Positions 4,029-47,760 of a DNA stretch of 64,000 bases are shown piece by piece; the first letter of the stretch is position 1, and the number at the start of each line of letters is the position of its first letter. Under the pieces are notes generated by a model that saw only the letters and a list, made by a program, of their open reading frames with translations, was not told the origin of the DNA and ran no database searches. The stretch comes from Gammaproteobacteria bacterium. GTDB taxonomy: Bacteria; Pseudomonadota; Gammaproteobacteria; Eutrophobiales; Eutrophobiaceae. Position numbers and translations under genes: made by a program. The stretch covers positions 2,474,200 to 2,538,199 of the forward strand of contig CBDEUD010000003.1 in the NCBI GenBank assembly GCA_965243115.1, written 5' to 3'.

Positions 4029-4858
4029 GACGTTGCCTCCAGCAGCAGAACACCGGTAAAAAACACCGGCGCCGCGGCCGTCATGCTGTCAATCCGGTCC
4101 AATGCCCCCCCGTGGCCGGGCAACAGTTCACCGCTGTCCTTGAACCCCCCGCTACGCTTTATCATGCTCTCGGTGAGATCGCCCACAACAGAGACGGCAG
4201 TTGTGACCAGACAGACCAGCAGGAACAGGATGGACTCGTACAGCGCCAGTTGCAGCAACAGGGAGCAAATGACTGCGACCAGCAGGCCACAGCCCAGGGC
4301 GCCGTATAAACCCTCCAGGGTTTTGCCCGGGCTGACCTGACTGGCAAGTTGATTCCTGCCCCACCTTTGACCCACGTAATATGCTCCCGTATCCGCGCTC
4401 CAGATCAATACCAGTAAACAGGTTACCAGAACCGGACCGCGTAAATCAGGATCAGCATGCAAAGCGACCAGGGATACCCACGCGGGAACCAGCACGACGA
4501 TGCCGATGCCGGTATGCAACGTCAGCCCCGGACTGAATTCTCTGCCGCGTTGCCGGCGTATGACCAGTACCAGGGCCAGCACCCACCAGGCCAGCGACGA
4601 ACCCACGATAAACAAGGTCACGCTGCTGCCGATATTACGGTAACAGACTGTCAAAAGTAACGCGGTCAGTACCACCGCAAATGCCTTGCGGCGTCTGTCA
4701 TGTATTCCCGCAAGACCCGCCCATTCCCATATTCCGGTCAGGATGATTACGCCGCACAGGCCGGCGAACAGTCCGTGTGTACCGTAAACGGTTACTCCGA
4801 GAACCAGCGGAATCAGCACCAGCGCAGTGCCGATCCTTGTATCAAAGGGCAGTTTCAT
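4025..4858 (-). CDS. cdsA: Phosphatidate cytidylyltransferase (CDP-diglyceride synthase)
   Basis: Multi-TM protein with the CdsA C-terminal signature (SxxKRxxGxKDxxxxxPGHGGxLDRxDS). The ORF extends to 4963, but the ATG at 4858 ([10 protein letters not shown]) is the probable start. GTGA overlap with the dxr start. Confidence 0.85.
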
Positions 4859-5639
4859 TTTGTCCGAGTTGCTCAGAGGTGCGGCCGAAGCGGCGTTGCC
4901 TGCCCACGTAGGATTGCAATGCCTTGTCATACTCCGTATTGGTAAAGTCCGGCCAGTACACATCGGTAAAATACATTTCCGTGTAAGCCAGTTGCCATAG
5001 CAGAAAGTTACTGATGCGAACCTCTCCGCCCGTGCGAATGAACAGATCAGGGTAGTCCGGCAAATCCAGTTGGCGCCTCAATGCCTCTTCCGATACCGCA
5101 TCGCTGCCGCTGTTTTCGCCGGACAGTGCGGAAAAGAGTTTTTTACAAGCCGACACGATCTCCGTACGCCCACCATAATTTATTGCGATAACCAGGTTTA
5201 ACCCGTTGTTTGCCGCGGTTCTTCGTGCTGCATTTTGAGTGGAAAGTTGCAGCTCTTCGGGAAAAACGGAAATATCACCGATAAAAGATAACCTGACGTT
5301 ATTTTTATGCAACTCATCGAGTTCATCATCCAGTGCGGTTACGAACAACTCGATCAATAAAGCCACTTCGGCGTGCGGGCGCTGCCAGTTTTCACTGCTG
5401 AAAACATAAACGGTCAGTGTCTTGACCCCGCGGTAAATACTGTGTTCGACCGTTCCGCGCAAGGCGTCTATACCGGCTTTGTGACCTGCCGCACGTGGCA
5501 AGCCCCTGCTTTTTGCCCACCTGCCGTTACCATCCATGACGATGGCCACGTGCTCCGGCATGTTTTCCATCAGACCGGACGTGGCGTCAGCCTGTGCGAT
5601 GAGCGCGCACGATATTGATCTGTGTCTTTCATCTCGCAC
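4842..5639 (-). CDS. uppS: Ditrans,polycis-undecaprenyl-diphosphate synthase
   Basis: HVAIVMDGNGRWA, FSSENWQRP and RTGGEVRISNFLLWQLAYTE motifs. Start is uncertain: GTG at 5639, or ATG at 5570 or 5561. Confidence 0.85.
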   Translation of the reverse strand: MRDERHRSISCALIAQADATSGLMENMPEHVAIVMDGNGRWAKSRGLPRAAGHKAGIDALRGTVEHSIYRGVKTLTVYVFSSENWQRPHAEVALLIELFVTALDDELDELHKNNVRLSFIGDISVFPEELQLSTQNAARRTAANNGLNLVIAINYGGRTEIVSACKKLFSALSGENSGSDAVSEEALRRQLDLPDYPDLFIRTGGEVRISNFLLWQLAYTEMYFTDVYWPDFTNTEYDKALQSYVGRQRRFGRTSEQLGQNETAL

Positions 5640-5676
5640 GCCCCGAAGGCGTACCCGCTGCCGCGGTTTCCGGGCT

Positions 5677-6234
5677 TCATATCTCCATCAACTCCGCCTC
5701 TTTGTCCTTGAGGATTTCCTCGATGTCCCTGATATGCGCATCGGTCATCTTCTGGATGTTGCCCTCCTCCCTGCGGTCCTCGTCTTCGGTAATCATCTTT
5801 TCCTTCAGCATTTCCTTCATGTGGTGGTTTGCATCGCGGCGGATATTGCGCACGGCAACCCTGGCTTTCTCCGCTTCCGATCTGACTACCCGGGTCAGTT
5901 CCTTCCTGCGTTCCTGTGTCAGGGCCGGTAACGGGACCCGCATCACGCTGCCCGCGGTGACCGGGTTCAAGCCCAGGTCCGAATTCAATATCGCCTTTTC
6001 AATGTCCGTAACCATATTCTTGTCCCACGGCGACACACCCAGTGTACGGGCATCGAGGACGGTAATGTTGGCGGCCTGGTTCAACGGCACCTGGCTGCCA
6101 TAGTAGTTAACGGTGACATGCTCCAGCAGGCTCGGGTGAGCCCGTCCGGTGCGGATTTTCGACAGCTCGCTGCGTAGCGCCTTGAGCGTTTTGTCCATGC
6201 GGCTGTCCGCGTCTTTGAGGATATCTTCAATCAT
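5677..6234 (-). CDS. frr: Ribosome recycling factor
   Basis: 185 aa, collinear with Frr ([32 protein letters not shown]...). Confidence 0.92.
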
Positions 6235-6354
6235 TTTAGTTTCTGGTTTTTAGTTTTTTAGTTGCCAGTTATTGGGTTGTGGATGCTGGTTTTCCCTTTG
6301 TTGTTGAACACCGCCTTGAACAATTACTAAAAACTGACTACTGAAAACCGACAA

Positions 6355-7080
6355 CTATTGAGTAACGAGCGTACCTTCCGCCATGCCCCTGGCAGCGCGC
6401 AACAAGGCGCCGGGCTGCATCATATTCAAAACCCGCAAGGGCATGTTGTTCTCGCGGCACAGCACAATGGCAGTCGTATCCATCACTGCAAGTTTTCTTT
6501 CAATCACTTCATCATAACCCAAAACATCATACCTGATCGCCGTTTTGTCATGTACCGGATCGGCGGAGTAAATGCCGTCCACCTTGGTCGCCTTGATTAA
6601 CAGGTCGGCATTGATCTCCACAGCCCGGAGACTGGCGGCCGAGTCGGTGGTAAAGAACGGGTTACCTGTCCCGGCCGCAAAGATCACCACCCGGCCTTTT
6701 TCCAGGTGACGCACCGCACGCCGCCGGATGTAGTCTTCACAGACCTCGTTGATTTTTATGGCCGACATTACCCTGGCGAAGGCGCCAAGCTGTTCCAGGG
6801 CATCCTGCAAAGCGAGGGAGTTCATGATGGTAGCCAGCATACCCATGTGGTCGGCGGTGACCCGGTCAATCCCTGCTGCGGCAAGTCCCGATCCGCGGAA
6901 AAAATTCCCCGCACCCAGAACCAGTGCGATCTCTGCACCGTTCCGGCTCAGGTCCCGGATCTCATTTGCCAGTCTCTTGATTGTGGCAGGATCAATCCCG
7001 TAAGCGGCTTCGCCCATCAACGCTTCGCCGCTCAGTTTAATCAGAATTCTTCGATATTGCAGTTCCGGGGATTCAGGCAA
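6355..7080 (-). CDS. pyrH: UMP kinase
   Basis: [16 protein letters not shown]-terminus and amino-acid kinase fold motifs. TTG start. Confidence 0.9.
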
Positions 7081-7087
7081 ATCACAC

Positions 7088-7984
7088 CTACTCTTTAGTC
7101 AATCCGGCCTGTTGCATGACGTCAGCGGCAAAATTATCCGCTTTCTTTTCGATACCTTCACCGACTTCATACCTGATAAAACCATTCACCGACGCGTTGT
7201 TTGCCTTTAACAGGGCTGCCACGGAGGTATCGGGGTCCTTGACGAAAGCCTGCCCGGTCAAGGTGTTTTCCCGCAAAAACTTTTTCACCCTGCCGCTGAC
7301 CATTTTCTCGATAATATCATCCGGTTTACCCGATTGCCTGGCCTGGGCAAGCAGGACCTGCCTTTCATTCTCCAATACCTGCGGCGCAACATCCTCTTCA
7401 TTGACGCACAACGGATTACTGGCTGCGATATGCATCGCCAGATCCTTTGCCAGGCCGGGATTATCCGCAGACAGGTCCACTATTACACCTATCCTGATAC
7501 CGTGCACGTAGATACCCAGGGTGCCGCCGGCCGTCTTGTTGAGCCGGGCAAAGCGGCGGATGCTGATGTTCTCCCCCAGCTTGGTCACCAACTCCTGCCT
7601 GGTATCTTCGACCGTTTGCGTTCCCCCATTGTTTAACCGTAATTGCCCCGCGCTATCCGCAGTTGCGCCGGGTTGCCCAAGGAGCGTGTTGGCAAGTTGA
7701 CTGGAGAAACCCTGAAAGTTTTCATCCTTGGCGACAAAGTCCGTTTCACAGTTGACCTCCAGTATCACTGCCTGGTTGCCGGCCTGATCCGGTTTCACAA
7801 CTATGGTCCCTTCGGCCGCGATGCGTCCTGCTTTTTTTGCCGCTTTGGCGATGCCGGATTTTCGCATCACATCGATTGCGGCTTCAATATCGCCGCCGGC
7901 TTCCTGCAGCGCCTTTTTACAATCCATCATCCCGGCACCGGTCCTGTCCCGCAATTCTTTTACCATCGACGCAGTAATTTGCAT
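7088..7984 (-). CDS. tsf: Elongation factor Ts
   Basis: [26 protein letters not shown] matches the EF-Ts N-terminus. The ORF extends to 7996, but the ATG at 7984 aligns with the E. coli start. Confidence 0.9.
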
Positions 7985-7992
7985 TGTACTTC

Positions 7993-9507
7993 TCAATCCT
8001 GTTTCACTTCGGTTTTGTCTTCAGGGACCGCGCTGTCCTGTTTTGCGGCACTTTCTGTTTTTGCCGGGATTTTAGCGGTAGTCTTTGCCGGTGTCTTTGC
8101 CGGGGCTTTAGCGGTGGTTTTTGCCGGCGTCTTTGCCGGGGCTTTAGCGGTAGTCTTTGCCGGCGTCTTTGCCGGGGTTTTAGCGGTGGTCTTTGCCGGT
8201 GTCTTTGCCGGGGCTTTTGCCGTGGTCTTTGCCGGCGTCTTTGCCGGAGCTTTTGCCGCGGTTTTTGCCGGCGTCTTTGCCGGAGCTTTTGCCGCGGTTT
8301 TTGCCGGTGTCTTTGCCGGCGTCTTTGCCGGAGCTTTTGCCGCGGTTTTTGCCGGCGTCTCAGCCGGGGCTTTTGCGGTGGTTTTTGCCGTGGCTTTTTT
8401 CGCCGCACTCCCGGTGCCCGCGGATTTTGTCGCAGCCCGCTTCGGCTTTTCGGTTGCGGCCGGCTTCACGTCCTCGCTTACCGCTTCACCTGCCGGGTCA
8501 TCTTTCTGCGCTTCAGCGGCAGCCCCGTCTTCCTTTTCCCCAGCCTGATCAGCAGCCGTCACAACCTCCGGCTCTTCGGTCTCAGCAGGGCTTTCCGTTT
8601 CCGTTAGCGCCTCGGCAACCTGTGCCTCCGCTTGTACTTCAGAACTTGCTTCATCTTCCTGTGCATTGCCGGCATCGGCTTCCGTTTCAACGGGCTTCCT
8701 GATCTTTTCCCTCACGGTCTTCTTCTTGACCAGGACTTTTTCCTCCTTGGCCTCGACAATAGGCGCCCCCTCGGCGTCAAGCTCCACGAAATCATCCTTG
8801 TCTCCGCCCTCACCAAGATGCGCAACCGAATCCTTGCCCGTTATGATCGCATCGGCCACGGCTTTTGTGTATAACCTGATTGACCTTATGGCATCATCAT
8901 TGCCCGGTATAACGTAATCAACCCCGGCAGGACTGTTGTTGCTGTCGACTATGCCGATAACGGGTATCTTGAGCTTGACCGCTTCGCTGACGGCGATATC
9001 CTCGTAGCCTACATCGATCACGAACAATGCATCCGGCCAGCCGTCCATATCCTTGATCCCTGACAGGTTCCGGTCCAGTTTTTCCAGTTCCCTCTCAAAA
9101 TGCAGTATTTCCTTCTTGCTCATGCGTTCCATGCCGCCGCCGGTTTTCATCTCCTCCAGTTCCTTCAGACGGTTGATCGATTGCTTGACCGTTTTGTAGT
9201 TGGTCAGCAGGCCGCCCAACCAGCGCAGGTTGACATACGGCATGCCGCAACGCTGGGCTTCTTCCTTGATAATCTGTTGTGCGGCGCGTTTTGTCCCCAC
9301 GAACAGGATTGTTCCCTTGTTTGCCGACAACTTGCCGGCAAAGTTCAGGGCTTCCTGGAGCAGGACCTTGGTCTTCTCCAGGTCGATAATGTGTATTTTA
9401 TTACGATGGCCATACAGGTAAGCGGCCATTTTGGGATTCCAGTAACGCGTCTGGTGGCCAAAATGTACACCGGCCTCCAGCATCTCGCGCATGCTGATTT
9501 CAGACAT
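7993..9507 (-). CDS. rpsB: 30S ribosomal protein S2 with a roughly 250-aa low-complexity C-terminal extension (acidic segment followed by [12 protein letters not shown]-type tandem repeats)
   Basis: [27 protein letters not shown]... is collinear with S2 for about 255 aa, with SD caggag 7 nt upstream of the ATG at 9507. The frame then stays open through 8742-7993, encoding an E/A/T-rich acidic stretch followed by K/A/P/T repeats. The stop lies 8 nt before the tsf ATG. Confidence 0.8.
8035..8400. repeat. Tandem 12/36-bp repeats (gccggcgtctttgccggggctttagcggt...) forming the coding minisatellite of the S2 tail
   Basis: Periodicity is directly visible in the sequence. It makes all six frames open, which explains the spurious ORFs on the opposite strand. 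Confidence 0.85.
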
Positions 9508-9654
9508 ATTCAAACTCCTGACAGGGTTAAGCCTCCGCACATCCCGCATTACACCCGGCCGTCTACCGTCGAGCCGGCCAGGACCCCGAAATGCGTTCTG
9601 TAATGTGCGTGTGTTCTAACAACAGTTCTCTTGCTATAACCGGATAATTGGAGT

Positions 9655-9747
9655 CGGGATATTTGGGGTCAGAGTAAAAATACACCCAAGTTGGCGGGTG
9701 TTGCCGTGCAATTTACCAGGTATTTTTACTCTGACCCCAAATATCCC
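9655..9747. repeat. REP-like palindromic element, family 2: arms GGGATATTTGGGGTCAGAGTAAAAATAC with a roughly 37-bp spacer
   Basis: Near-perfect inverted arms. Second copy at 19937-20023. Located in the divergent rpsB/map promoter region. Confidence 0.8.
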
Positions 9748-36205: not shown

Positions 36206-37198
36206 ATGAGTGCAGTGCCGCAAAGCGACTCCGGCCTTGAGGCAATCCAGGAACTGATCAGGGACGACATGTCCCTGGTAAACGCGCTGATTGAGGAAAA
36301 ACTGCATTCCGAAATCGGACTTATAGACCAGTTAAGCCATTACATCGTCAACAGCGGAGGTAAAAGACTGCGGCCGGCACTGGTGCTGCTGAGCGCCAAC
36401 AGTTTTGGCTACAGTGGGAGCCTGCACGTCAAACTTGCCGCCGTCATAGAATTTATCCATACCGCTACCCTGCTGCACGACGACGTGGTCGATGCCTCCA
36501 TGCTGCGGCGGGGTCAAGCCACCGCCAACCAGCGCTGGGGCAATGAAGCCAGCGTCCTGGTCGGTGATTTTCTCTATTCCCGCGCCTTCCAGATGATGGT
36601 GGAAGCAGGTTCGATGCACGTCATGAAAATCATGGCTGACGCAACCAATACCATAGCCGAAGGTGAGGTACAACAACTCATCAACCGGCATGACCCGGAT
36701 ACAACAGAGCAACGTTATCTGCAGGTCATACACAATAAAACGGCAAAATTGTTCGAGGCCGCCGCCCGCGTCGGCGCCGTTATCGCCGGGCAGGAAGAAA
36801 AAACGGAACTGGCCATGTCCGACTACGGCAGGCACCTGGGCATTGCCTACCAACTCATTGACGATGCCCTTGACTACAGCGCCTCCAGCGAGAACCTGGG
36901 CAAAAATATCGGTGACGACCTGGCCGAAGGCAAACCCACCCTGCCCCTGCTGTATGCCCTCTGGCATTGCCCCGATGAGCAGGCAATCCTGATCAGGCGC
37001 GCCGTAAAACAGGGCAGCCTGGAGGATATGGAGCAAATCAGCGCAGCCATTGCGGCAACCGGAGCGATCCAGTATACACGCGAACGCGCCCGCCAGGAGG
37101 CCGCTCTCGCCATGCGTGCCCTCGAACGCCTGCCCCGGTCAAGATACCTGGACGCCCTGTACACGCTGGCCCATTTTGCTACCGAGCGGAATTACTGA
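36206..37198 (+). CDS. ispB: Octaprenyl diphosphate synthase (polyprenyl synthetase)
   Basis: Two DDxxD motifs (LLHDDVVD, LIDDALD). Divergent from rplU as in E. coli. ATG at 36206 is the probable start. Confidence 0.88.
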   Translation: MSAVPQSDSGLEAIQELIRDDMSLVNALIEEKLHSEIGLIDQLSHYIVNSGGKRLRPALVLLSANSFGYSGSLHVKLAAVIEFIHTATLLHDDVVDASMLRRGQATANQRWGNEASVLVGDFLYSRAFQMMVEAGSMHVMKIMADATNTIAEGEVQQLINRHDPDTTEQRYLQVIHNKTAKLFEAAARVGAVIAGQEEKTELAMSDYGRHLGIAYQLIDDALDYSASSENLGKNIGDDLAEGKPTLPLLYALWHCPDEQAILIRRAVKQGSLEDMEQISAAIAATGAIQYTRERARQEAALAMRALERLPRSRYLDALYTLAHFATERNY

Positions 37199-37333
37199 AT
37201 AGAAAGCTATTGAAGCAGAACCTGCCCCGGCATCCCACCAGGTTGTAGACGCAAGGTCTGTTGTAAGGTAGAGTTCGCATTGGCAAACGGCAGGTGGGTA
37301 TTTGCAGCATGCCGGTTGCCATTATTTTCGTAT

Positions 37334-37410
37334 CGGGGTGTAGCTCAGCCTGGTAGAGCACTGCCTTCGGGAGGCAGGGGCCGGAGGTTCAAATCCTCTC
37401 ACCCCGACCA
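37334..37410 (+). tRNA. tRNA-Pro (anticodon CGG)
   Basis: Cloverleaf folded by hand: 7-bp acceptor CGGGGUG/CACCCCG, D-arm GCUC/GAGC, anticodon stem CUGCC/GGCAG with loop UUCGGGA, T-arm GGAGG-UUCAAAU-CCUCU, discriminator A and encoded CCA. Strong similarity to E. coli tRNA-Pro. Confidence 0.85.
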
Positions 37411-37480
37411 ACAACTTCATAAGCCAGAGGCCTCCGAAGAAGCCTCATCGAAACTACGACAGGCTTGGCGTCACCATCAG

Positions 37481-38020
37481 CTATGACGAATCGGCCACGA
37501 GCTGCTGTTCAACGACAGTCATCCGCTCACGAATAGCCGCCTGGCCCTCCTGCAGACCGTTAAACTGCTGCGTCAGGTCGCTGCGGACTTCGTTGGTCTG
37601 CTGCGTCAGGTCGCTGCGGACTTCGTTGATCTGCTGTGTCAGGTCGCTGCGGACTTCGTTGATCTGCTGTGTCAGGTCGCTGCGGACTTCGTTGATCTGC
37701 TGTGTCAGGTCGCTACGGACTTCGTTGATCTGCTGTGTCAGGTCGCTGCGGACCTGGTTGATCTGCTTTATCAGGTCGCTGCGGAGTTCACGGATCTCAC
37801 CACGGATTTCGCGCATCTCACCACGAACTTCGCTGAGCTGTTGAGTCAGGTCGCTACGGACCCCGCTGATTTGCTGGGAAAGGAAAGTGAGGTAAGCAAA
37901 CATCATGGTAACCACGATGGCCGCGCCCCACTTCAGTACGCGCACTTCCCCGGACAGACGCCCCAACTCACGTGCGCCCTCGAGGTCCTGCACTGTCATA
38001 ACCGTGTTTTCCGTATTCAT
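37481..38020 (-). CDS. Membrane-anchored protein with about 10 tandem 11-aa repeats (SDLTQQINEVR; 33-bp minisatellite), paralog A1
   Basis: The N-terminus MNTENTVMTVQDLEGARELGRLSGEVRVLKWGAAIVVTMMFAYLTFLSQQ is identical to the paralog at 39309-39773. One TM helix, then 11-residue repeats, and a conserved C-terminus ...QFNGLQEGQAAIRERMTVVEQ. The ORF track extends it to 38086. Confidence 0.65.
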   Translation of the reverse strand: MNTENTVMTVQDLEGARELGRLSGEVRVLKWGAAIVVTMMFAYLTFLSQQISGVRSDLTQQLSEVRGEMREIRGEIRELRSDLIKQINQVRSDLTQQINEVRSDLTQQINEVRSDLTQQINEVRSDLTQQINEVRSDLTQQTNEVRSDLTQQFNGLQEGQAAIRERMTVVEQQLVADSS

Positions 38021-38143
38021 AATACTTCTCCTTCTGACGTTTCCATCACAGGTCGTATGGCCAGGACAGGGTATGATGCCCGACAACGCCTGTCAAGGGG
38101 CCCTGAGGGGTCAGACCAGTTCAGATCGCCACGAATTTAGAGG

Positions 38144-39256
38144 TCAGGACCACATCTCACCAGCTTTCTTGCGGGAATCAAGCTCATCCAAAGCCAGTTC
38201 GGCGCGCATGGCCTCGGTTGCCGTCGCCTTGGCATCCTCCAGCGGGATGCCCGTCGCATCGGCAACGCGCGGGTAGCAGTTAAATGCTGCAATGACCGCC
38301 GCGGCATCAACCATCGCCGCCTCACCCATTGCTCTTATGATTTGTTGCCGGACTGTTGCCGTGCGCGCTGCATCATCTGCGCAGACAGCCTCGACAAAGT
38401 CATTGAGAAGCTCTCCCCGGGGCAGACCGCTATCACCCGAGCCTTTACCGATTGCATCCTCAAGCGCGTACTTGTCGCCGGTATGTTTGCCGCTCAAACT
38501 GAGCCGCATTGCATGGCTGGCAGTTCAATAAAAACAGTCGAGATAGGCCGAGGTGCGAGTCGCAATGAATTCCATCTGCGCCCGTGAGATTGCTCGCTCG
38601 ACGCCCTCGAGTTCAACTCTTAACGGATTACCCAGGTAAAGCTGGTTCAACAGCGGCCAAAACCGGTTTGCTTCGTCGGGTACCAGGGTCAGCGCGCGTC
38701 GAATATAGGCGGCGGGGCCTGTCTCATAAAAATCACCGAGTTCGTGGCCGGCATCTTCCGGAGCAACCGTCGGCGCCCATCCCGGCCCTGTCTTGGCACC
38801 GGCCGGCCGCCTGCGCGGCGGTATGCCTTGCTCTCCTGTTGCGGACAACGCCAAAGGCGGGAGCCCGATACCGCGCATGAAGGTGTCCGCACCAGTGACA
38901 ATGGTAACGAGGCTCAGCAGCTCGATGAATTCGTCTTCAGCGATACCGGCAGCGATGGTTGAATCGTACCAGCTCTCAGTGATGCGGCCGGAGTCGGTAA
39001 CTATCCGGTGCACCGCCTCGACCCAGGCATCGGGGAGCGCGCCGAGGTGCTCATGATCACCCTGTACGGTATAGGGCGACAAGGCTTCCTTGCGCCGTTT
39101 GCAGAGTTCGCATTGCCATGCGTTGCGGGCTTCGTTTGCAATTGCAAGACGTTGTTCGCCGCTCAGCCAGGCGCCGGTCTGAGCCACTTCCGACCAGGCC
39201 TGGGTCAAGGCCGATTTGAGATTATCCCGTACGGTGAGTGGTGATGTATCTATCAT
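38144..39256 (-). CDS. Candidate selenoprotein of the AhpD/carboxymuconolactone-decarboxylase (CMD) family; in-frame TGA at 38525-38527 read as Sec (two ORF-track ORFs joined)
   Basis: ORFs 38525-39256 and 38144-38509 are in the same frame, separated only by one TGA. Readthrough gives ...AYLDCFY-U-TASHAM..., a C-x-x-U-x-x-x-H motif matching the AhpD C-x-x-C-x-x-x-H active site. A hairpin lies 16 nt downstream of the UGA. Confidence 0.6.
38488..38508 (-). ncRNA. SECIS-like hairpin (mRNA: UGCGGCUCA-GUU-UGAGCGGCA)
   Basis: 9-bp stem with one G.G mismatch and an apical loop containing GU. Starts 17 nt after the in-frame UGA, within the typical bacterial SECIS distance window. Confidence 0.45.
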
Positions 39257-39308
39257 ATCAGTATCCCTGTTCTGTAACAGGCAACACTTGCTCTCCTCCC
39301 TTTGTCAG

Positions 39309-39773
39309 CTATGACGAATCGGCCACGAGCCGTTGTTCAACGACAGTCATCCGCTCACGAATAGCCGCCTGGCCCTCCTGCAGACCGTTAAATTGGTGCG
39401 TCAGGTCGCTACGGACTTCGTTGGTCTGTTGCGTCAGGTCGCTACGGACTTCGTTGATCTGCTGTGTCAGGTCGCTACGGACTTGGTCAATTCGCTGTGT
39501 CAGGTCGCTATGGACTTGGTCGATTCGCTGTGTCAGGTCGCTATGGACTTGGTCGATTCGCTGTGTCAGGTCGCTATGGACTTGGTCGATCTGCTGTGTC
39601 AGGTCGCTACGGACCCCGCTGATTTGCTGGGAAAGGAAAGTGAGGTACGCAAACATCATGGTAACCACGATGGCCGCGCCCCACTTGAGTACGCGCACTT
39701 CCCCGGACAGACGCCCCAACTCACGTGCGCCTTCGAGGTCCTGCACTGTCATAACCGTGTTTTCCGTATTCAC
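39309..39773 (-). CDS. Membrane-anchored protein with about 8 tandem 11-aa repeats (SDLTQ[QR]IDQV[HR]), paralog A2
   Basis: Same N- and C-termini as A1, with a different repeat number and sequence. Its upstream about 80 bp is near-identical to the A1 upstream region. Confidence 0.65.
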   Translation of the reverse strand: MNTENTVMTVQDLEGARELGRLSGEVRVLKWGAAIVVTMMFAYLTFLSQQISGVRSDLTQQIDQVHSDLTQRIDQVHSDLTQRIDQVHSDLTQRIDQVRSDLTQQINEVRSDLTQQTNEVRSDLTHQFNGLQEGQAAIRERMTVVEQRLVADSS

Positions 39774-40041
39774 AAATATTCTCCTTCTGACGTTTCCATC
39801 ACAGGTCGTATGGCAAGGTCAGGGTATGATGCCTGACAATGCCTGTCAAGAATAATTGCCGCCCCCGCCAATAGGGTACCGGGTATTGTTGACGGAGGCC
39901 GGCGCAACCACTGACAGGAGTTGCTACTGGAGACAAATAATTGATAAAAATCATAATGATATAATAAATATTCAACATGTCTTCTAGATATATGATAAAA
40001 TCGGTGGTCGTTGATACTCAGCCATTGACAACCCCCATTCC

Positions 40042-41097
40042 ATGAATATCGCCGAAGCACTCCCGCCGTTTCCGGAAGGGTGGTATTTCATCGCCGACCG
40101 AAAAACCGTTCTCAAGAAAAAACTCACCCGGAAAACCTGGATGGGTGAGGAGATCATCGCCTGGTGTGACGCGGAAGGCCGGATCTGCGTGGCCGATGCG
40201 GTATGCCCGCACATGGGTTCCAGCCTGGGTCCGGAGGTGGGGGCCCGGGTACGCGACGGTTGCCTGGTTTGCCCCTTTCACGGATTTGAGTACGATGCAA
40301 GCGGCCAGTGCGTTGCCACCCCGAATGCCCCCGCGCCCAAATCAGCCAGGTTGAAAACGTACGAAACAAGAGAAATACTCGGTCTGGTGTTTGCCTGGTG
40401 GGGGAGCGGCGGACGGCTGCCGCAATGGCAGCTGCCGGAACAGCCGCACACCGGCCCGGACTGGAGCGATCTGGCGCTGGGCTTCTTCAGCTTCCCCGGG
40501 CATCCCCAGGAAACTTCTGAAAACTCCGTGGATCTGGCGCACCTGCGTTATATACACGGCTACGACAACGTACACCCGGTCGGCGATGTGTCGGTTAACG
40601 GCGCCCACCTTGTGTCCCGTTTCGACTTCAGGCGCAACCGGAAATTTGCCGGGTTGATTGACAACATCTACGATGTATCAGCCGTTACACATCTTTACGG
40701 CGTAGGCTACTCCTATGTTGAAATTCACGAGAAAACCATCGGTATGGATGCCAGATTATGGGTACTCTCAACACCCATAGACGGTACACATATTGAACTT
40801 GTGCTGGTGAGCCAGGTCAGGGAACTGCGCAAACCGAAACGGCCCATCGTGGGTTTGCGCTTTATCCCGGTGCATCTGCGCCACAGGTTACTGAACCGCA
40901 TTATACTGCGGGCGCAGATACAGGATGTCCGGCAGGACGTGATTATCTGGGGGAAAAAACAATATCGGCCACGCCCCCGCCTGAGTCAGGCGGATGGCGA
41001 GGTAATGACATACCGGCACTATTGCCGCCAGTTCTATCCGGAAACTTATCCGGAGACGGGCCGTGATGAGTTCCAGCTGAGTTCCGTTTCAGGTTAG
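40042..41097 (+). CDS. Rieske [2Fe-2S] non-heme-iron oxygenase (KshA/Neverland/SdmA-like)
   Basis: Rieske motif CPHMG...(17)...CPFHG and mononuclear-iron motif DLAHLRYIH (DxxHxxxxH). AT-rich promoter-like region upstream (39900-40020). Confidence 0.8.
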   Translation: MNIAEALPPFPEGWYFIADRKTVLKKKLTRKTWMGEEIIAWCDAEGRICVADAVCPHMGSSLGPEVGARVRDGCLVCPFHGFEYDASGQCVATPNAPAPKSARLKTYETREILGLVFAWWGSGGRLPQWQLPEQPHTGPDWSDLALGFFSFPGHPQETSENSVDLAHLRYIHGYDNVHPVGDVSVNGAHLVSRFDFRRNRKFAGLIDNIYDVSAVTHLYGVGYSYVEIHEKTIGMDARLWVLSTPIDGTHIELVLVSQVRELRKPKRPIVGLRFIPVHLRHRLLNRIILRAQIQDVRQDVIIWGKKQYRPRPRLSQADGEVMTYRHYCRQFYPETYPETGRDEFQLSSVSG

Positions 41098-41194
41098 TCC
41101 GCGCAACGCATACGTTATATTACATTAACACGAGTTTTTTGGGACAGTATTGGAGTCTCATATATATCTGAACCCCTGCATGGGAGAATACGGC

Positions 41195-42229
41195 ATGAAA
41201 CTAGGCAAACTACCCAATGCTCTGAAACGTGCGTACCGGGGGTCAGATGTCACCCGTCGAATAAAACATTTCGATGGCTGGAGCGGTCGAGCGGCGCAGG
41301 ATGGCGTCGGAGCGGACAGCTACGACCACAGCGAAACGGTGAAAGAATACTATGAGCTTTGCAACGAGTTCATGGTGTTCGGTTGGAATGAATCCCTGCA
41401 TTTTGCTCCCTTGACGCCCAATGAGACTCTGGAGGACTCCATCATCCGGCATCAGCGGTTGATGATCGCCAACCTGGAGCTGCAACAGGGCATGACAGTT
41501 GTTGATATCGGCTGTGGGATAGGCGGCCCGATGCGCCGCATCGTGCGTGAGTCCGGTGTCCGGGTTGTCGGGGTCAACAACAATGAGGTCCAGATGGAAA
41601 AGGCAAAAATGCTGAATATCGAGGCCGGGGTCGACCACATGGTTGAGTACGTTGCGTGCAGCTTTATGGACATGAGTGTCATCGGAGACAACACTTTCGA
41701 CGCAGGTTATGCAATCGAGTCGACGTGCCATGCGCCGGACAAGGCAGGCGCATTCGCGGAGATATTCCGCGTGCTGAAACCCGGGGCCCTGTTCTGGGGT
41801 CAGGAAATGTGCATGACGGACAAGTTCAATCCGAATGACGCAAGCCACCGGGCCATCCAGCAGGAACTTATGCACTATATTGCGCTGAATGAAATTGCGA
41901 CGCCGGGGGAAGTGAACCAAACGCTTGAAGCGGCGGGCTTCAGCGTCCTCAAAGGGATGGACCTGGGCGTCAGTGAGGATCAATCCACACCCTGGTACCA
42001 ACCCATGGAGACTCAGCATGGAACCCTGGACAAAGCCGTGCGTAGAATTCCATGGGGCCGCAGGGCGCTCATCGTGGCATTGAAGCTGGCCGAAACGGTC
42101 GGACTGTTCCCGAAGGGATCCACGGAAGTAGTCCGGCTCATGGACCGCACGGCACAGGCTTATGTCGCGGGCGGCAGAGCAGCCATATTCACGCCGTTGT
42201 ACTGTTTCCTGGCTCGCAAACCCCTTTAG
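41195..42229 (+). CDS. Sterol 24-C-methyltransferase (ERG6/SMT family)
   Basis: Collinear with yeast ERG6 across the protein: YYELCNEFMVFGWNESLHF (SMT motif I, YEYGWGxSFHF), VVDIGCGIGGP (SAM motif), YAIESTCHAP, VLKPGALF and the C-terminal GGRAAIFTPLYCFLARKP. SD gggagaa before the ATG at 41195. Confidence 0.85.
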   Translation: MKLGKLPNALKRAYRGSDVTRRIKHFDGWSGRAAQDGVGADSYDHSETVKEYYELCNEFMVFGWNESLHFAPLTPNETLEDSIIRHQRLMIANLELQQGMTVVDIGCGIGGPMRRIVRESGVRVVGVNNNEVQMEKAKMLNIEAGVDHMVEYVACSFMDMSVIGDNTFDAGYAIESTCHAPDKAGAFAEIFRVLKPGALFWGQEMCMTDKFNPNDASHRAIQQELMHYIALNEIATPGEVNQTLEAAGFSVLKGMDLGVSEDQSTPWYQPMETQHGTLDKAVRRIPWGRRALIVALKLAETVGLFPKGSTEVVRLMDRTAQAYVAGGRAAIFTPLYCFLARKPL

Positions 42230-42501
42230 ACCCCGATAGGGCCGGTTGGCCCTATACATGACGCCCGGTAGTTTCGGCTGCTATCTCCCTGACTGCACGT
42301 TGCGTAGAGGGGGATGCCGGATAACTGACCCGACGCCATGAGTCCAAAGCACTTGGCTTGATTGAAATTCATTCCATCGAGTGGTATAATGCGCGCGGTC
42401 AACACCTGTTTTTTTATGGCTTCCAATACCCTTGAGATTGAGTTCGGCGCAGGCAAAGGGGCGTTTTCCGATTCCCGGTTTATTAAGTCTAACGCACTGA
42501 A

Positions 42502-44496
42502 ATGATAAGTTTAGTTGACGAACTGGTACTGTTCCTCATCAACGAAGAAAGCGGTTACTTTCACCAGGTTTCAGGCTGGAAACTGCACTGCGCCCTCGCC
42601 GGCGCCGTGCTTGCGGACCTGTCAATGATCTCACGTATCGACACAGACCTGGAGTCTCTTTTTGTTGTCGACTCCACGGAAACAGGCGACCCCGTCCTGG
42701 ATTCCGCCTTGAGGAAAATCGGGGAAGAACCAACGCAACGAAGTACCCAATTCTGGATTGAACGGCTGAGCCCGCGCGCGGAATCGATCATCGATACGAC
42801 TCTGGAACGACTGGCGGAGCGTGGAATAGTGACGGAACATCAAGGCGGGTTTTGGACTATCTCGCGTACTACCTGGCAGACCCATTCCTATTCTTCTGAC
42901 GATGGAGATGAGACGGAGTTCGTCAAGACGCGACTTAGTAAGGTCATTTTCGATAACGAAATCCCTGACCCGAGAGATATTTTCCTCATCTCTCTCATCC
43001 ACACGTGCGATGTCTTTCGCTTTGTCTTCACCCTCGACGAAGCGGCGGAGGAACGTATTGCGGCCATTTCCAGCATGGACGTTCTGGGCCGCGCCATCGC
43101 GGAAGCCATCAGCCAGACCCTTGCAGGTCCGGCGCTGCAACGTGCGATTAAGTCCCGACCGATTCCGACCGTCCCGATACGCGACCTGCTGTTCAGCCCG
43201 CATATCCGCACCGGCAACATATCTGCGCTGTTTGCCGGGCTTGCTGAAAAACACGGGCCCGTGTTCAAGATTAAAGCGCCGTTTATGAAGGAAGACATGG
43301 TAATTCTCGCCGGCCTCGAGGCAAACAAATGGACGCATCGCTCCGGCCGCAACTACCTGAGAGCCAAGGACTATCTTGAAGGTTTCGTGAAGGTCTACGG
43401 CGCCGGGCGGTTGCTGCCCGCGATGGACGGCGCCGACCATTTCCGTTTGCGCAAAACCTATGGTTCGATGAATTCGCGCAAAAAACTTGAAAACCGCCTG
43501 GATGAACTATACGGGCCCGCCCGCGGCTACCTGGCGGGTTGGCAGGTCGGCGACGTCCTGACGGCGGTGGCGACTTTCCCCGAATTGATCAACTCGCAAT
43601 TCTCACCGATCAACATCGGCATCAACACCCAGGACTGTATCAAGGAAGTGATCGAATTCAAGAAGCGGGCGCTCGCCATTCACCTGTTGCGGATGCTGCC
43701 GGAATTCATGCTGTATACCCCGGGCATGAAACGCAGGAAGAAGCACTTTGCCAGGCTGGTCGAGCGGGTGCAGGCTGTGCATACACCAGCCCAGCGGGCG
43801 GGCTGTCCCCGGAATCTTGCGGACGATTTACTGAGCCTGCACGCAAGCGACCCGCAGTTTTTGCCGGAAACGGATTTGCCTTTTGCTTTTGTGTCATCGC
43901 TGCTTGCCGCCTTTTACCTCGGCAGCGCGTTGAGCTTCGCGGTGTACGCCATGGTGTCGCAGCCGGCCCTGTATCGCAGGATACAGGCGGAAGCCGCAAC
44001 GTTCTTTGCCAACGGCGAACCGGTAGGCGAGGAAGTCCAGGAATTCAATTTAGATGTCACCCACCGCCTCATCATGGAGTGCCAGCGTATGTACCCGGTC
44101 GTGCCGATGCAGGTCAGGAACGTAATGAATGCCTTCACGCTCGAAGGATATTCACCTCCTGTAGGAACGCGGCTTTTCATTGCCCAGACAGCCACGCATT
44201 ATATGGATGACGTCTTCCCGGACCCCTTTTCGTTCGATATCGACCGCTACCTCCCGGAACGCAAGGAACAAGTCGGCCACGGCTACGCGCCGTACGGGCT
44301 GGGCACCCACACTTGCCTCGGTCAGAACTGGGTAGAGTTGCAACTGGCGCTTAACCTGCTGCTGATTGCGCACTATTTCAACCTTGAGTTGTCCCCCGAA
44401 AACTACCAGCTGCGTTTCAACCCGATCCCGTCGCTGGCGCCGAGGAAGAGTCTCAAGTTCGTCGTCGCAGAAAAGCGGCGCGAACTGCCTGCCTGA
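42502..44496 (+). CDS. Fusion protein: N-terminal GPP34/GOLPH3-like domain (about 220 aa) + C-terminal cytochrome P450
   Basis: N-terminus MISLVDELVLFLINEESGYF...WKLHCALAGAVLADL matches the GPP34 family pattern (ELLLLALDDE...ALAGAVLAEL). C-terminus has P450 EXXR (ECQR), PERF-like PDPFSFDIDRY and heme ligand YGLGTHTCLG. It is a single 664-aa ORF. Confidence 0.75.
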   Translation: MISLVDELVLFLINEESGYFHQVSGWKLHCALAGAVLADLSMISRIDTDLESLFVVDSTETGDPVLDSALRKIGEEPTQRSTQFWIERLSPRAESIIDTTLERLAERGIVTEHQGGFWTISRTTWQTHSYSSDDGDETEFVKTRLSKVIFDNEIPDPRDIFLISLIHTCDVFRFVFTLDEAAEERIAAISSMDVLGRAIAEAISQTLAGPALQRAIKSRPIPTVPIRDLLFSPHIRTGNISALFAGLAEKHGPVFKIKAPFMKEDMVILAGLEANKWTHRSGRNYLRAKDYLEGFVKVYGAGRLLPAMDGADHFRLRKTYGSMNSRKKLENRLDELYGPARGYLAGWQVGDVLTAVATFPELINSQFSPINIGINTQDCIKEVIEFKKRALAIHLLRMLPEFMLYTPGMKRRKKHFARLVERVQAVHTPAQRAGCPRNLADDLLSLHASDPQFLPETDLPFAFVSSLLAAFYLGSALSFAVYAMVSQPALYRRIQAEAATFFANGEPVGEEVQEFNLDVTHRLIMECQRMYPVVPMQVRNVMNAFTLEGYSPPVGTRLFIAQTATHYMDDVFPDPFSFDIDRYLPERKEQVGHGYAPYGLGTHTCLGQNWVELQLALNLLLIAHYFNLELSPENYQLRFNPIPSLAPRKSLKFVVAEKRRELPA

Positions 44497-44580
44497 GACG
44501 GCAGGGATTCCCTGTCAGCATTTCCCGGGCGCCGGCAGGCAGCGCGGCTGCATTGGTTCCCGCTGGAGAAGCCAAACGCA

Positions 44581-47500
44581 TCAGGTCCCGCGCAGCCGGT
44601 TGACGCGCAGGTAGATTGCCAACAGGGCAGGCACACAGATCATGAGAATCGCTGTCGTAATCAGGATGCCGACCCCAAGCGTGGCCGCGAAGGGGGCCAG
44701 GAACTGGGCCTGGATGGCCCGTTCGAGAATGAGAGGCGTGAAGCCGAGAAAGGTGGTCACGGAGGTCAGCATGATGGGTCGAAAACGTTCCTTTGCGCCA
44801 TCGATAATCGCGCTCCGTGGGGGAGCGCCTTCGCTGAGTCGCTGATCGACGAAATCTATCATTACCAGGGAGTCGTTCACGACGACTCCGCTCAAGCCGA
44901 AGAAGCCGATCATGGACGTCGCGCTCACGGGCACACCCAGCACCCAATGCCCCAGGATCGTGCCGATGATGCCAAACGGAATGATGGCCATGACAATGAT
45001 CGGCTTGCTGTAGGAGCGCAGGGGAATGGCCAGCATGGCAAACATAAACAGCAACACGAGTATAAAACTGCGGAACAGCGCGCCCAGCGATTCAATCTGC
45101 TGTTGCTGTTCACCCCCGTATATGTAGGTCAGGCCGGGATTGGCGGCTGACAGGTCAGCGAGGATGGAATCCGCCAGGATGCTGTTTGCTTCATTAGCGG
45201 AAATCACAGCCGGGTCCACTTCAGCGATCACGGTGACGACGCGCTGGCCGTCCCTGCGCCGAATTTCCGGAGGGGAAAAACCCGTGTTCAAGCGCGCGAC
45301 CTGGGTAAGCGGCACTTCCGCCCCGCCCGGGGTGCGGATCAGGTATGCCTCAACGTCGGTCATGGCGTCGCGTTCATCCTTGGGCAGGCGGACATAGACC
45401 CGGACTTCTTCCCGGTCTCGCTGCACCCGCAGGGCTTCGGCGCCGAAGAATGCCGCGCGTGCTTGCACGGCCAGGTCTTCCAGCGTGAGTCCGAGTGTGC
45501 GCGCCTCCTCCCTCAACTCCAGTTGTATCTCCCTGACACCCGGCGCGTGGTCGGAGCGTATGTCATACACGCCCTCCAGTCCGCGCAATTCGCTGACCAC
45601 CGAACCTGCTATTTGGACGAGACGGTCCGGGTCCGGATGAGAAAGCACCGCCTCAACGGGACTGCCGAAGTCGACGACATCTCCGCTGATGGCAATGCTG
45701 CGCACGTAGGGCAGGATACCCACCTCCTCCCTCCAGGCTTGCGCGACATCTACCGTGGAGATATCTCGTTGCTGCGCGCTCACGAGCTTGAATTCGATGC
45801 CGGCAACGTTGGCTTCAGGGTTCAGCGTGAGTTTCGGTAACAATCCCCCACCCTCAACGCGAGGTTCCCGGCCAACGGTGACGACGACTCCCGAGAGCAG
45901 GGGGGGCGCTCCATCAGCCTGGGTCCCAGAGAACCGGGCAACGACGCGTCGCCCCGCCTTCTCCAGTTCCCTGGCCACCTCGTGCGTCCTGCTCGCGGTA
46001 GTCCCATCCGGCATCTCAAGGCTCGCGTTCACGAAGTCGCCTTCGATCACGTCGGCGTAAGTAGTCATCACGATACCTGCCGGCAACAGGGAGATGCTCA
46101 GGACGAGCATGCCGACCGCGACCGCCATCACCACTGCCGGCTGTTGTGTTGCAAATCGGAGCGATCGGTCCAGAGGTCCTTCCACGAACCTGTTCAATAC
46201 GCGATCAACGTAGCGCTGGGTGCGCCAGAAAAACCGCTCAACCGGACTGGTGGGCGTCCAGTCCGGACCGTGCAGGTGAGAGAGGTGGTTGGGAAGTATG
46301 AAGAAAGCATCGACGAGGGAGATCAACAGCATGGCGATGACGACTATCGGCAGCGCCTTCCATATTTCACCGATGCCCCCGGGCACGAAGAGTACGGGCG
46401 TAAACGCGGCGATGGACGTGAGCACGGCAAACGTCAGGGGCTTCTTGATCCGCCGAACGCCGCGGATTGCGGCCGCGACTCCCGGTATGCCCTGCTGCCG
46501 CTCGTGATGGATGTGCTCGGCCACGACGATGGCGTCGTCGACAATGATACCGATGGCAAGGACGAACACGAACAGGGAGACGTTGTTGAGTGAGAGGTCA
46601 AATGCCAGCATGACGGCCAGGGCGCCGATCCCCGCAGTGGCGAGTCCGACCGCGACCCATAACGCCAGCCGTATTTCGAGGAACAGCGCCAGGGCGATAA
46701 GGACGAGCATGAGCCCCAACGAGCCGTTCTTAAGCAACATGTCGACCCGCTCCGAATAAGTCTGGGTATCGTCGTTCCAGATAGAGATTTCCACGCCTTC
46801 GGGCAGGGATGGCGCAATGACGTTTGCCACGTGTTCGTGCACCGCCGCGGCGACAGCCATCACCGGTTCACCTTCCGCCCGGAAGACCTCGACAAAGGCT
46901 GCCGGCTTACCGTCGTAGCGCACAATCAGGTCATTGTCGCGAAAGCCATCGTGCACTTCTGCAATATCGCTGAGGCGCACCACGGTCCCGTCATTGCGAC
47001 TGAGAACGACAAGATTCTCAAAGTCCTGCTGATCATATCGCCGGCCGAGGGTGCGCACGCGCACTTCGGTATCCCGCGTCTTGATACTGCCGGCCGACAG
47101 GTCGAGGGAACCGCGACGCACCGCGTCGGCGACATCATCCAGTGTGAGTCCCAGGGCGCGCAGACGGCGCAGCGGTACTTCAATCGATATCTCGTAGTCC
47201 GACGTGCCGCTCGTCTCGACGTTCGATACTGCGGGCAGCGCAGCAAGATCATCCTCAATCTGGTAAGCCAGTTCCTTCAGCGATCGCCTTGGGATATCGC
47301 CATACACGACAAGACGGATGATGCTCGTGCGGGTGGACAATTTGGTAATCTCGGGACGCTCGGCCGCGCCGGGAAAGGACTGGATACGGCTGACTGCTGA
47401 CTCTACCTGGTCCAATGCCTGGTCAATATCCGTACCCGACCTCATTTCAACGCTGATGGATGCTATCCCGGGGGCAGCCACCGAGCGAATCGATTTAACG

Positions 47501-47760
47501 TCGTCCAGGGCTTCGACCTGTTCCTCAATCTTGACGACAATCGAATCTTCCACCTCCTCCGGGCTGGCGCCCGGATAGGCCATCGACACTTCAATCATGT
47601 TGAAGGGGATAGGCGGCCAGGCCTCCCGCTCAAGGCCGGTCAGCGATACCAGCCCCGCGGCGATGATGGCCAACATCAACAGGTTGGCGGCAACGCCATT
47701 GCCGGCCATGTAGGCGATCGGTCCCGGCCGTTCGCCGCCGATAAGATCCCTGGAATTCAC
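44581..47760 (-). CDS. Efflux RND transporter permease subunit
   Basis: 1059 aa, 12 TM with two large periplasmic loops, GIIVDDAIVVAEHI motif. ATGA overlap with the upstream adaptor gene. Confidence 0.9.
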   Translation of the reverse strand: MNSRDLIGGERPGPIAYMAGNGVAANLLMLAIIAAGLVSLTGLEREAWPPIPFNMIEVSMAYPGASPEEVEDSIVVKIEEQVEALDDVKSIRSVAAPGIASISVEMRSGTDIDQALDQVESAVSRIQSFPGAAERPEITKLSTRTSIIRLVVYGDIPRRSLKELAYQIEDDLAALPAVSNVETSGTSDYEISIEVPLRRLRALGLTLDDVADAVRRGSLDLSAGSIKTRDTEVRVRTLGRRYDQQDFENLVVLSRNDGTVVRLSDIAEVHDGFRDNDLIVRYDGKPAAFVEVFRAEGEPVMAVAAAVHEHVANVIAPSLPEGVEISIWNDDTQTYSERVDMLLKNGSLGLMLVLIALALFLEIRLALWVAVGLATAGIGALAVMLAFDLSLNNVSLFVFVLAIGIIVDDAIVVAEHIHHERQQGIPGVAAAIRGVRRIKKPLTFAVLTSIAAFTPVLFVPGGIGEIWKALPIVVIAMLLISLVDAFFILPNHLSHLHGPDWTPTSPVERFFWRTQRYVDRVLNRFVEGPLDRSLRFATQQPAVVMAVAVGMLVLSISLLPAGIVMTTYADVIEGDFVNASLEMPDGTTASRTHEVARELEKAGRRVVARFSGTQADGAPPLLSGVVVTVGREPRVEGGGLLPKLTLNPEANVAGIEFKLVSAQQRDISTVDVAQAWREEVGILPYVRSIAISGDVVDFGSPVEAVLSHPDPDRLVQIAGSVVSELRGLEGVYDIRSDHAPGVREIQLELREEARTLGLTLEDLAVQARAAFFGAEALRVQRDREEVRVYVRLPKDERDAMTDVEAYLIRTPGGAEVPLTQVARLNTGFSPPEIRRRDGQRVVTVIAEVDPAVISANEANSILADSILADLSAANPGLTYIYGGEQQQQIESLGALFRSFILVLLFMFAMLAIPLRSYSKPIIVMAIIPFGIIGTILGHWVLGVPVSATSMIGFFGLSGVVVNDSLVMIDFVDQRLSEGAPPRSAIIDGAKERFRPIMLTSVTTFLGFTPLILERAIQAQFLAPFAATLGVGILITTAILMICVPALLAIYLRVNRLRGT

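Follow-up and report, generated by a model that had tools for sequence, protein, structure and literature searches.

Paralogous genes of an unnamed, probably rod-forming membrane protein family on both sides of an AhpD-type selenoprotein gene

Hendecad (11/3) coiled coils form the stalk of tetrabrachion and segments of the stalks of trimeric autotransporters. In the periplasm, coiled coils that set lengths include Braun's lipoprotein Lpp and the phage i-spanin Rz, the latter with its N-terminus inside and its C-terminus outside. Variation in length through a variable number of tandem repeats is a property of bacterial envelope proteins such as the streptococcal M and alpha-C proteins. Two genes whose products invite comparison with all three, here called A1 and A2, lie in a stretch of 64,000 nucleotides (nt) from a bacterium of the Gammaproteobacteria (GenBank assembly GCA_965243115.1, contig CBDEUD010000003.1, positions 2,474,200 to 2,538,199), referred to as the window. 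The genes were singled out by an earlier reading of the sequence alone (the original prediction), which saw in them and the AhpD-like selenoprotein gene between them a possible undescribed redox/membrane module. The analysis leads to a different view: A1 and A2 are paralogues of an unnamed family, probably of bitopic hendecad-rod proteins of variable length, and their position around the AhpD gene is an accident of local gene order.

Two paralogous genes and their family

The list of open reading frames (ORFs) places three genes on the minus strand in the order A2 (39309-39773), a 370-codon frame (38144-39256) and A1 (37481-38020). The features of the two A genes include repeat arrays detected with Tandem Repeats Finder (TRF).

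37481..38020, minus strand: A1 coding sequence from the ORF list, ATG start, 179 residues
A1 protein parts: 30-residue N-terminal tail, transmembrane (TM) helix at about residues 31-51, 107-residue repeat stalk, conserved C-terminal QEGQAAIRERMTVVEQQLVADSS
37558..37789, minus strand: A1 array of 33 base pairs (bp), 7.0 copies, 92% matches, TRF score 387, hendecad SDLTQQINEVR
37782..37833, minus strand: A1 21-bp units (heptads GEMREIR/GEIRELR), TRF period 21, 2.5 copies
38021..38096, minus strand: predicted A1 promoter and 5' untranslated region (5'UTR), -35 TTGACA at 38096-38091, -10 TACCCT at 38073-38068
39309..39773, minus strand: A2 coding sequence, GTG start, 154 residues, architecture as in A1, 82-residue stalk
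39400..39614, minus strand: A2 33-bp array, 6.5 copies, 92% matches, TRF score 311
39774..39849, minus strand: predicted A2 promoter and 5'UTR, -35 TTGACA at 39849-39844, -10 TACCCT at 39826-39821, AAGGAG

A1 and A2 are intact paralogues with one TM helix each, and both carry in-frame 33-bp minisatellites; on these points, the original prediction is confirmed. The architecture of A1, which matches the N-terminal profile with an expectation value (E) of 3e-36, was read from the family alignment and from parsing of the stalk. The exact A2 protein is already on record at NCBI. Three repeat units in A1 and two in A2 are identical at the DNA level, and the A2 array begins with units of the SDLTQRIDQVH type that are followed by units of the SDLTQQINEVR type. 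The 21-bp (7-residue) array is present in A1 and absent from A2, and accounts for the main gap in their alignment, 75 nt inserted in A1.

The duplication starts at the -35 hexamer (38096 and 39849) and ends 7 nt beyond the stop codon. The parts shared by the two genes had been described as near-identical, which holds for the coding termini (97.6% identity in the first 165 nt of the coding sequence and 95.2% in its last 105 nt) but not for the whole of the 85-nt leader (84.7%). On the 3' side of the duplication, the two copies are unrelated, with 36% identity over 25 nt past the stop. Neither target-site duplications nor inverted or terminal repeats were found at the boundaries of the A units. 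Long ORFs on the plus strand at 37593-37844, 39238-39855 and 39333-39836 (83-205 residues, with repeats rich in Cys, Arg and Ser) overlie the arrays; these are by-products of stop-free repeat DNA and not genes.

The A proteins constitute a narrowly distributed, unnamed and new family of a familiar kind, probably the bitopic coiled-coil rod whose length drifts by coding repeats. Queried with A2, 5.8 billion protein clusters yielded ∼100 clusters, none of which is named; when 1.84 billion representatives were searched exhaustively with a profile, 66 proteins reached E<=1e-3 and 16 reached E<=1e-10. In a scan of one genome per species, the family was located only in metagenome-assembled genomes (MAGs) of uncultured Gammaproteobacteria, one of them labelled Arenicellales, with one to four copies per genome. 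Between an N-terminal region that is nearly invariant (MNTENTVMTVQDLEGARELGRLSGEVRVLKWGAAIVVTMMFAYLTFLSQQI) and a conserved end of 25 residues (QEGQAAIRERMTVVEQRLVADSS), the members have a variable middle; the TM helix is highly conserved and preceded by GEVRVLKW. Remote relatives retain the module of G-E-x-R-x-L-K-W and TM helix, followed by other 7- or 11-residue repeats.

Scans of A1 and A2 against Pfam, NCBIfam, PHROGs and PADLOC returned matches below threshold and to the repeat region only, consistent with the earlier statement that no confident family assignment can be made. The weak matches driven by the repeats also include ZorA, LeoA and Rz-like spanins. When the isolated termini or the member with a single repeat (P0085) are used as the query, the repeat-driven matches vanish and nothing specific is left. 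A profile search of the PDB sequences with A yielded insignificant coiled-coil matches only.

The family members range from 85 to 179 residues, with lengths that mostly lie multiples of 11 or 7 residues apart, and between 16 and 107 residues of stalk separate the TM helix from the end piece, A1 of the window being the longest member found. The variation in length that had been expected of slippage-prone minisatellites is real, because chromosome-scale long-read assemblies carry members that differ in length (121-165 residues). Turnover of the repeats is also evident at constant length: compared with its counterpart in an independent metagenome contig (L002; ENA ERZ23495159), A2 of the window lacks one RIDQVH-type unit and has an extra QINEVR-type unit. 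The non-repeat coding DNA of A is 93-98% identical between genomes in which the flanking genes reach only 78-91%, which points to strong constraint or exchange between copies.

The alignment of 13 upstream regions of the family reveals invariant TTGA and TAnnCT elements with a 17-nt spacer, and the homology begins exactly at the -35 element. The A1 promoter has the 17-nt spacer, a conserved 5'UTR of ∼45 nt and a strong AAGGAG Shine-Dalgarno sequence, and a 5'UTR of this length ending in AAGGAG is well conserved across the 13 loci. This conservation suggests a sigma-70-type promoter for A1 and A2, which the consensus promoter scan did not call because the -10 element is weak. Transcription is predicted to start ∼7 nt past 38068 for A1 and 39821 for A2. 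Since promoter and 5'UTR are conserved together in the 13 loci, each A gene would represent its own transcription unit. The 5'UTRs (38021-38067 and 39774-39820; CCATACGACCTGTGATGGAAACGT.AGAAGGAG) are better conserved across species than the promoter spacer and have no match in Rfam; their conservation hints at post-transcriptional control. A partial A-type promoter start (GCAGTAATTCTTGAC) is also present in a related locus (L019, 7389-7403), just past the stop codon of A and before an inserted MAPEG gene.

The hendecad stalk

A hendecad consists of 11 residues in three helical turns (PMC4786415). The consensus of 307 units of the A family is S-D-L-T-Q-Q-I-N-E-V-R, in which leucine occupies position 3 in 261 units, isoleucine position 7 in 257 and valine position 10 in 232, giving a core spacing of 4-3-4. 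Fourier analysis of the hydrophobicity of the extramembrane part places the peak at 3.63-3.67 residues per turn, with a power of 137-181, whereas shuffled sequences reach at most 73, and no peak at 3.5; the 11-residue periodicity that had been proposed is therefore borne out. The AlphaFold2 monomer model generated with the family alignment is one continuous helix from residue 10 to 153 with a mean predicted local distance difference test (pLDDT) score of 87. In A2, the extramembrane helix would span ∼15 nm, and in A1 ∼19 nm.

Two kinds of structure share an 11-residue periodicity, the coiled coil and the helix that lies on a lipid surface. In A, the hydrophobic stripe is limited to three of the 11 positions, all large aliphatic residues within a calculated arc of ∼65 degrees, the flanks are Q, R and D, and true heptads (GEIREIR, QQQFNVM) are interspersed among the hendecads. 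Because the stripe is narrow, aliphatic and flanked in this manner, with heptads in between, a hendecad coiled-coil rod core fits the predicted stalk better than a helix of the apolipoprotein, perilipin or LEA type.

The strongest competitor is the reading of the repeat region as a membrane-surface 11/3 amphipathic helix that coats or stabilises a lipid surface, as in apolipoprotein, alpha-synuclein, perilipin or LEA proteins or the bacterial stress proteins YtxH and DUF948. The periodicity of 3.63-3.67 would suit such a helix too, YtxH and DUF948 proteins have an N-terminal TM anchor as A does, and Pfam matches to the Apolipoprotein, YtxH and DUF948 families were obtained. All of these matches fall under the curated cut-offs and are lost for P0085 and for the termini alone, and the narrow stripe of L, I and V, the Q/R/D flanks with neither a lysine belt nor Pro/Gly breaks, and the heptad segments, which are usual for coiled coils, speak against a lipid-coating helix. 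This alternative is unlikely, and the analogy to apolipoprotein, perilipin and LEA proteins drawn in the original prediction is not supported.

The hendecad-rod reading leads to a model of how an A protein may be arranged. Lysine and arginine residues number four before the TM helix and one or two after it, so by the positive-inside rule the predicted orientation is N-in/C-out, with the rod in the periplasm. The TM helix would anchor the protein, the 30-residue tail would remain inside, and the rod would project into the periplasm. The helix would pair or bundle with copies of itself to form a nearly straight hendecad coiled-coil rod, the length of which would shift as 33-bp (and 21-bp) units are gained or lost through slippage or unequal exchange. 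Our best guess for the role of A is a length-variable spacer or tether at the inner membrane, acting in the envelope. A bolder and distinctly tentative extension is a clade-specific periplasmic 'ruler' anchored in the inner membrane, in which each hendecad contributes ∼1.65 nm and copies of several lengths (15 and 19 nm) space the envelope layers. Should the rod prove periplasmic, the family would constitute a natural experiment in which a molecular distance is set by the number of repeats.

The selenoprotein gene and its surroundings

Marine metagenomes have been known to encode AhpD-like selenoproteins since 2005-2008 (PMC1088965, PMC2398784). The gene between A2 and A1 is an ordinary member of an already catalogued, curated selenoprotein family, with the following features.

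38144..39256, minus strand: AhpD-related selenoprotein gene, 370 codons in a single frame, family NF041238 (AhpD_rel_CFYUT)
38525..38527, minus strand: in-frame TGA read as selenocysteine (Sec), motif C-F-Y-U-T (...LDCFY*TASH...)
38488..38508, minus strand: hairpin resembling a selenocysteine insertion sequence (SECIS), ∼19 nt downstream of the TGA, UGCGGCUCA-GUU-UGAGCGGCA

The TGA is in frame with both halves of the gene and is the sole in-frame TGA of 38144-39256. With Cys put in for Sec, the protein scores 429.3 bits against the NCBIfam model NF041238 (cut-off 175, E 1.3e-128), residues 9-360 covering positions 1-356 of the 357 in the profile. The homologues are mostly called as products of 243-246 residues, consistent with truncation at the TGA codon. 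The sequence and pairs of the hairpin are kept across five loci, including loci in which the N-terminal parts of AhpD are only 63-70% identical; there are no compensatory changes and the z-score of the fold is -1.6. The hairpin is consistent with a putative SECIS element. The only tRNA detected in the window by ARAGORN is tRNA-Pro, and no search was aimed at selA, selB, selD or tRNA-Sec. The full-length match and the C-F-Y-U-T motif with its TGA are shared with NF041238, the putative SECIS hairpin follows downstream, and nothing notable differs. Some genomes contain a split-called AhpD_rel selenoprotein gene twice (L024 and L026, at 4001-5137 and ∼7454-8596), ∼3.4 kb apart.

The interval between a Rieske gene and the tRNA-Pro/ispB genes is orthologous in related genomes, with 78-93% DNA identity, and polymorphic in its content. 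The gene orders in the six loci compared are listed below.

Window and L002: A2-AhpD-A1
L003: HipBA-A-AhpD-Fic
L008: insertion sequence (IS)-A-AhpD-IS21-Fic
L019: A-MAPEG-AhpD, A1 missing
L020: AhpD-A, A2 missing

The original prediction suggested that the two A genes, as direct repeats, could loop out the central gene. The product of such an event, a single A without AhpD, was seen in none of the six loci (window, L002 and four relatives), all of which keep AhpD. The loci differ by the presence or absence of one A unit, a difference that recombination between A1 and A2 cannot produce. The A2 leader is 95% identical to the leader in L019, and the A1 leader and 3' flank are 89-92% identical to L020. 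Because these leaders and flanks match across species better than the A1 and A2 leaders match each other (85%), the genes at the A1 and A2 positions are separate lineages, and the pair is older than these species and was differentially lost. A decayed A promoter was not found at the 'empty' A2 site of L020, where 98 of 500 shuffles score as high.

The polymorphic interval is a variable hotspot between the Rieske gene and tRNA-Pro(CGG) (window 37411-40041; L003 8320-13152; L008 7292-15793; L019 7437-7829) that contains, depending on the genome, HipBA, a Fic protein, IS21 (istA/istB), other transposases or a MAPEG gene. A motif of 19-20 nt (GGTGACGCCAAGCCTGTCG) occurs past the A1 stop in the window (37457-37475) and twice in L020 (5608-5627 and 7425-7444), where the two copies flank AhpD-A. 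Upstream of A2 in the window, the motif is degenerate with more than three mismatches. It could be left over from an earlier duplication, represent an att-like site or have arisen by chance.

Beyond this interval, at least eight A loci lack AhpD, and their neighbours are unrelated.

L005 and L007: phoU-pstBAC, beside HigBA-like pairs
L006: ppx/amidase/ppk
L021: NUDIX/ATP sulfurylase/groESL
L009 and L012: IS and TnpB elements

Conversely, AhpD homologues at 63-70% identity have unrelated metabolic neighbours and, where the contig allows, no A gene within 4 kb on each side. Because A occurs elsewhere without AhpD and distant AhpD genes occur without A, the link between the two is synteny at one locus.

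This distribution bears directly on the proposal of a functional redox/membrane module in which the AhpD-type selenoprotein, a peroxidase-like enzyme, would be tethered or regulated at the membrane by A. In four of the six loci (window, L002, L003 and L008), an A gene is found immediately upstream of AhpD. In the window, 52 nt separate the A2 stop from the AhpD start in the same orientation, the terminator scan predicted no terminator in the gap and found no convincing ones, and transcription probably reads through from A2 into the predicted AhpD gene. The association is nevertheless confined to a single syntenic position in closely related genomes. Either A copy can be absent, as L019 and L020 illustrate; a MAPEG gene intervenes in L019, and the only A of L020 is downstream. 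The AhpD family comprises at least 348 clusters compared with ∼100 for A, and the unrelated neighbours at the other A loci and the AhpD homologues without A argue in the same direction. A functional module is improbable, and since the selenoprotein is catalogued and its adjacency to A is limited to one locus, the undescribed module first proposed is not supported; a functional link local to this clade is conceivable.

Three loci have an A-X-A pattern with two A genes in direct orientation, in which X is AhpD (window), a helix-turn-helix (HTH) protein (L004) or a 4.7-kb set including FRG-TPR and HTH_37 proteins (L009). In L004, the duplication reaches at least 25 nt beyond the stop. The pattern may reflect local duplication in variable regions. 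A more remote variant of the ruler proposal, in which A units act as portable homology that captures accessory genes, has nothing to support it. In a 4.9-Mb MAG (L001/L004, ∼5500-9700), the second A pair has DndB-like, RelA/SpoT-domain, PAPS-reductase and helicase genes as its neighbours, a setting that resembles a defence island.

Such surroundings raise the alternative that A is an accessory of mobile or defence islands, a membrane effector of the spanin, holin or abortive-infection kind whose units move with the islands. HipBA, HigBA-like pairs, Fic, DndB/RelA-SpoT, IS21 and TnpB are often near A, although the background density in the genomes was not measured; the locus adjoins a tRNA gene, X differs among the three A-X-A loci, and weak PHROG matches to Rz-like spanins reach E 0.003-0.007. 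Those matches, like the PADLOC ones, are driven by the repeats and lost for P0085, the unit boundaries are devoid of terminal repeats and target duplications, and phage structural, lysis or integrase genes are not adjacent to A. Other copies reside among core genes (phoU-pst, ppk, groESL). We regard an island accessory as a poor candidate.

The least probable alternative by far, that the gene arrangement or the arrays are assembly artefacts, draws on the difficulty of assembling identical 33-bp units and on the end of the L002 contig within the A1 array, but the arrangement is not an artefact because L002, an independent assembly 98.6% identical over 5.36 kb, has the same order A2-AhpD-A1, and the repeats are genuine rather than collapsed or expanded, given that both frames are intact, lengths in the family differ mostly by multiples of 33 or 21 nt, and chromosome-scale long-read assemblies hold intact members of many lengths.

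Several points weigh against the hendecad-rod family as the explanation of A1 and A2. A belongs to no curated family and has no solved relative among the PDB sequences. A monomer AlphaFold2 model cannot tell a coiled coil from an amphipathic helix bound to a surface, the positive-inside margin is small, and both the oligomeric state and the topology of A rest on inference. Some of the short members come from short-read contigs in which the arrays may be collapsed. The adjacency of A and AhpD in the same orientation recurs in five of the six loci (window, L002, L003, L008 and L019). Weighed together with the evidence above, the hendecad-rod family is still the more probable account.

The locus is bounded by two further elements. 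A tRNA gene delimits the variable interval next to A1 and has an ortholog in L003 and L008; an Rfam scan of 37000-40200 detected nothing besides this tRNA. On the other side, a sterol-type cluster (40042-47760) adjoins the A genes and is unusual for a gammaproteobacterium.

37334..37410, plus strand: tRNA-Pro(CGG), ARAGORN and Rfam, 70 nt from the A1 stop
40042-41097: Rieske/KshA_C oxygenase
41150-42229: methyltransferase with a Sterol_MT_C domain
42502-44496: ORF of 664 residues, the L002 counterpart of which carries P450 and GPP34 domains
44581-47760: resistance-nodulation-division (RND) transporter

Comparison with known systems

No new redox system is present here, the central selenoprotein being catalogued already. 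What the locus defines is a compact, unnamed family of very narrow distribution, in which an invariant GEVRVLKW-TM anchor is followed by a hendecad rod that varies in length and by a conserved end piece; its non-repeat parts are unusually strongly conserved. For annotation, the gain lies in naming the family and in no longer taking weak apolipoprotein, ZorA or spanin matches for function.

The only bridge to a named family, a weak one, leads to the prokaryotic and mitochondrial CCDC90-like family (PF07798, DUF1640), which resembles A as a small bitopic coiled-coil protein with a juxtamembrane ...L(K/R)W leading into the TM helix. In DUF1640, the stalk comes first and the TM helix is C-terminal, whereas in A the TM helix (31-51) comes first and the stalk follows. 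A beta-layer motif of DUF1640 has been described (PMC4786415). One remote relative of A, P0129, matches the A profile at E 1.2e-8 and PF07798 with 45 bits (cut-off 33.5), the two overlapping in the TM segment. PF07798 is passed by two of the 61 remote relatives, is not among the best 25 of 84 families listed for A1 or the best 25 of 51 for A2, and does not match the termini or the one-repeat member even at E<=10. Membership of A in DUF1640 is rejected, as two remote relatives are insufficient and the domain order is reversed.

Other candidates were considered and set aside. Apolipoprotein A1/A4/E (PF01442) scores 46.3 bits for A1 and 42.4 for A2 against a cut-off of 90, in the repeat region only. 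YtxH (PF12732) scores 25.3 and 16.8 bits, respectively, against 37.5, and DUF948 (PF06103) 21.2 and 18.0 against 37.2. What these families have in common with A is an N-terminal TM anchor and, behind it, long repetitive helices in 11-residue phase; A differs in its conserved 30-residue tail before the TM helix and its narrow aliphatic stripe. A phage i-spanin of the Rz type was rejected, as neither an o-spanin lipoprotein gene nor a holin-endolysin lysis cassette is found near A, be it in the window or in those related loci that were inspected.

The remaining comparisons are those of analogy. With the hendecad coiled coils of tetrabrachion and the autotransporter stalks, A has in common the 11-residue repeat, the 4-3-4 core, the periodicity of 3.67 and the transitions to heptads; it has no sequence relationship to them and is small and predicted to be anchored in the inner membrane. 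The likeness to Lpp and Rz is functional and presupposes the predicted periplasmic location, an envelope-anchored coiled-coil rod whose length defines a distance, although A lacks a lipobox as well as an o-spanin partner, and lysis genes are absent nearby. From the M and alpha-C proteins, A is set apart by unusually conserved termini and by the lack of evidence for surface exposure or immune selection; as in those proteins, its in-frame minisatellite units are identical within a gene and vary in number between strains.

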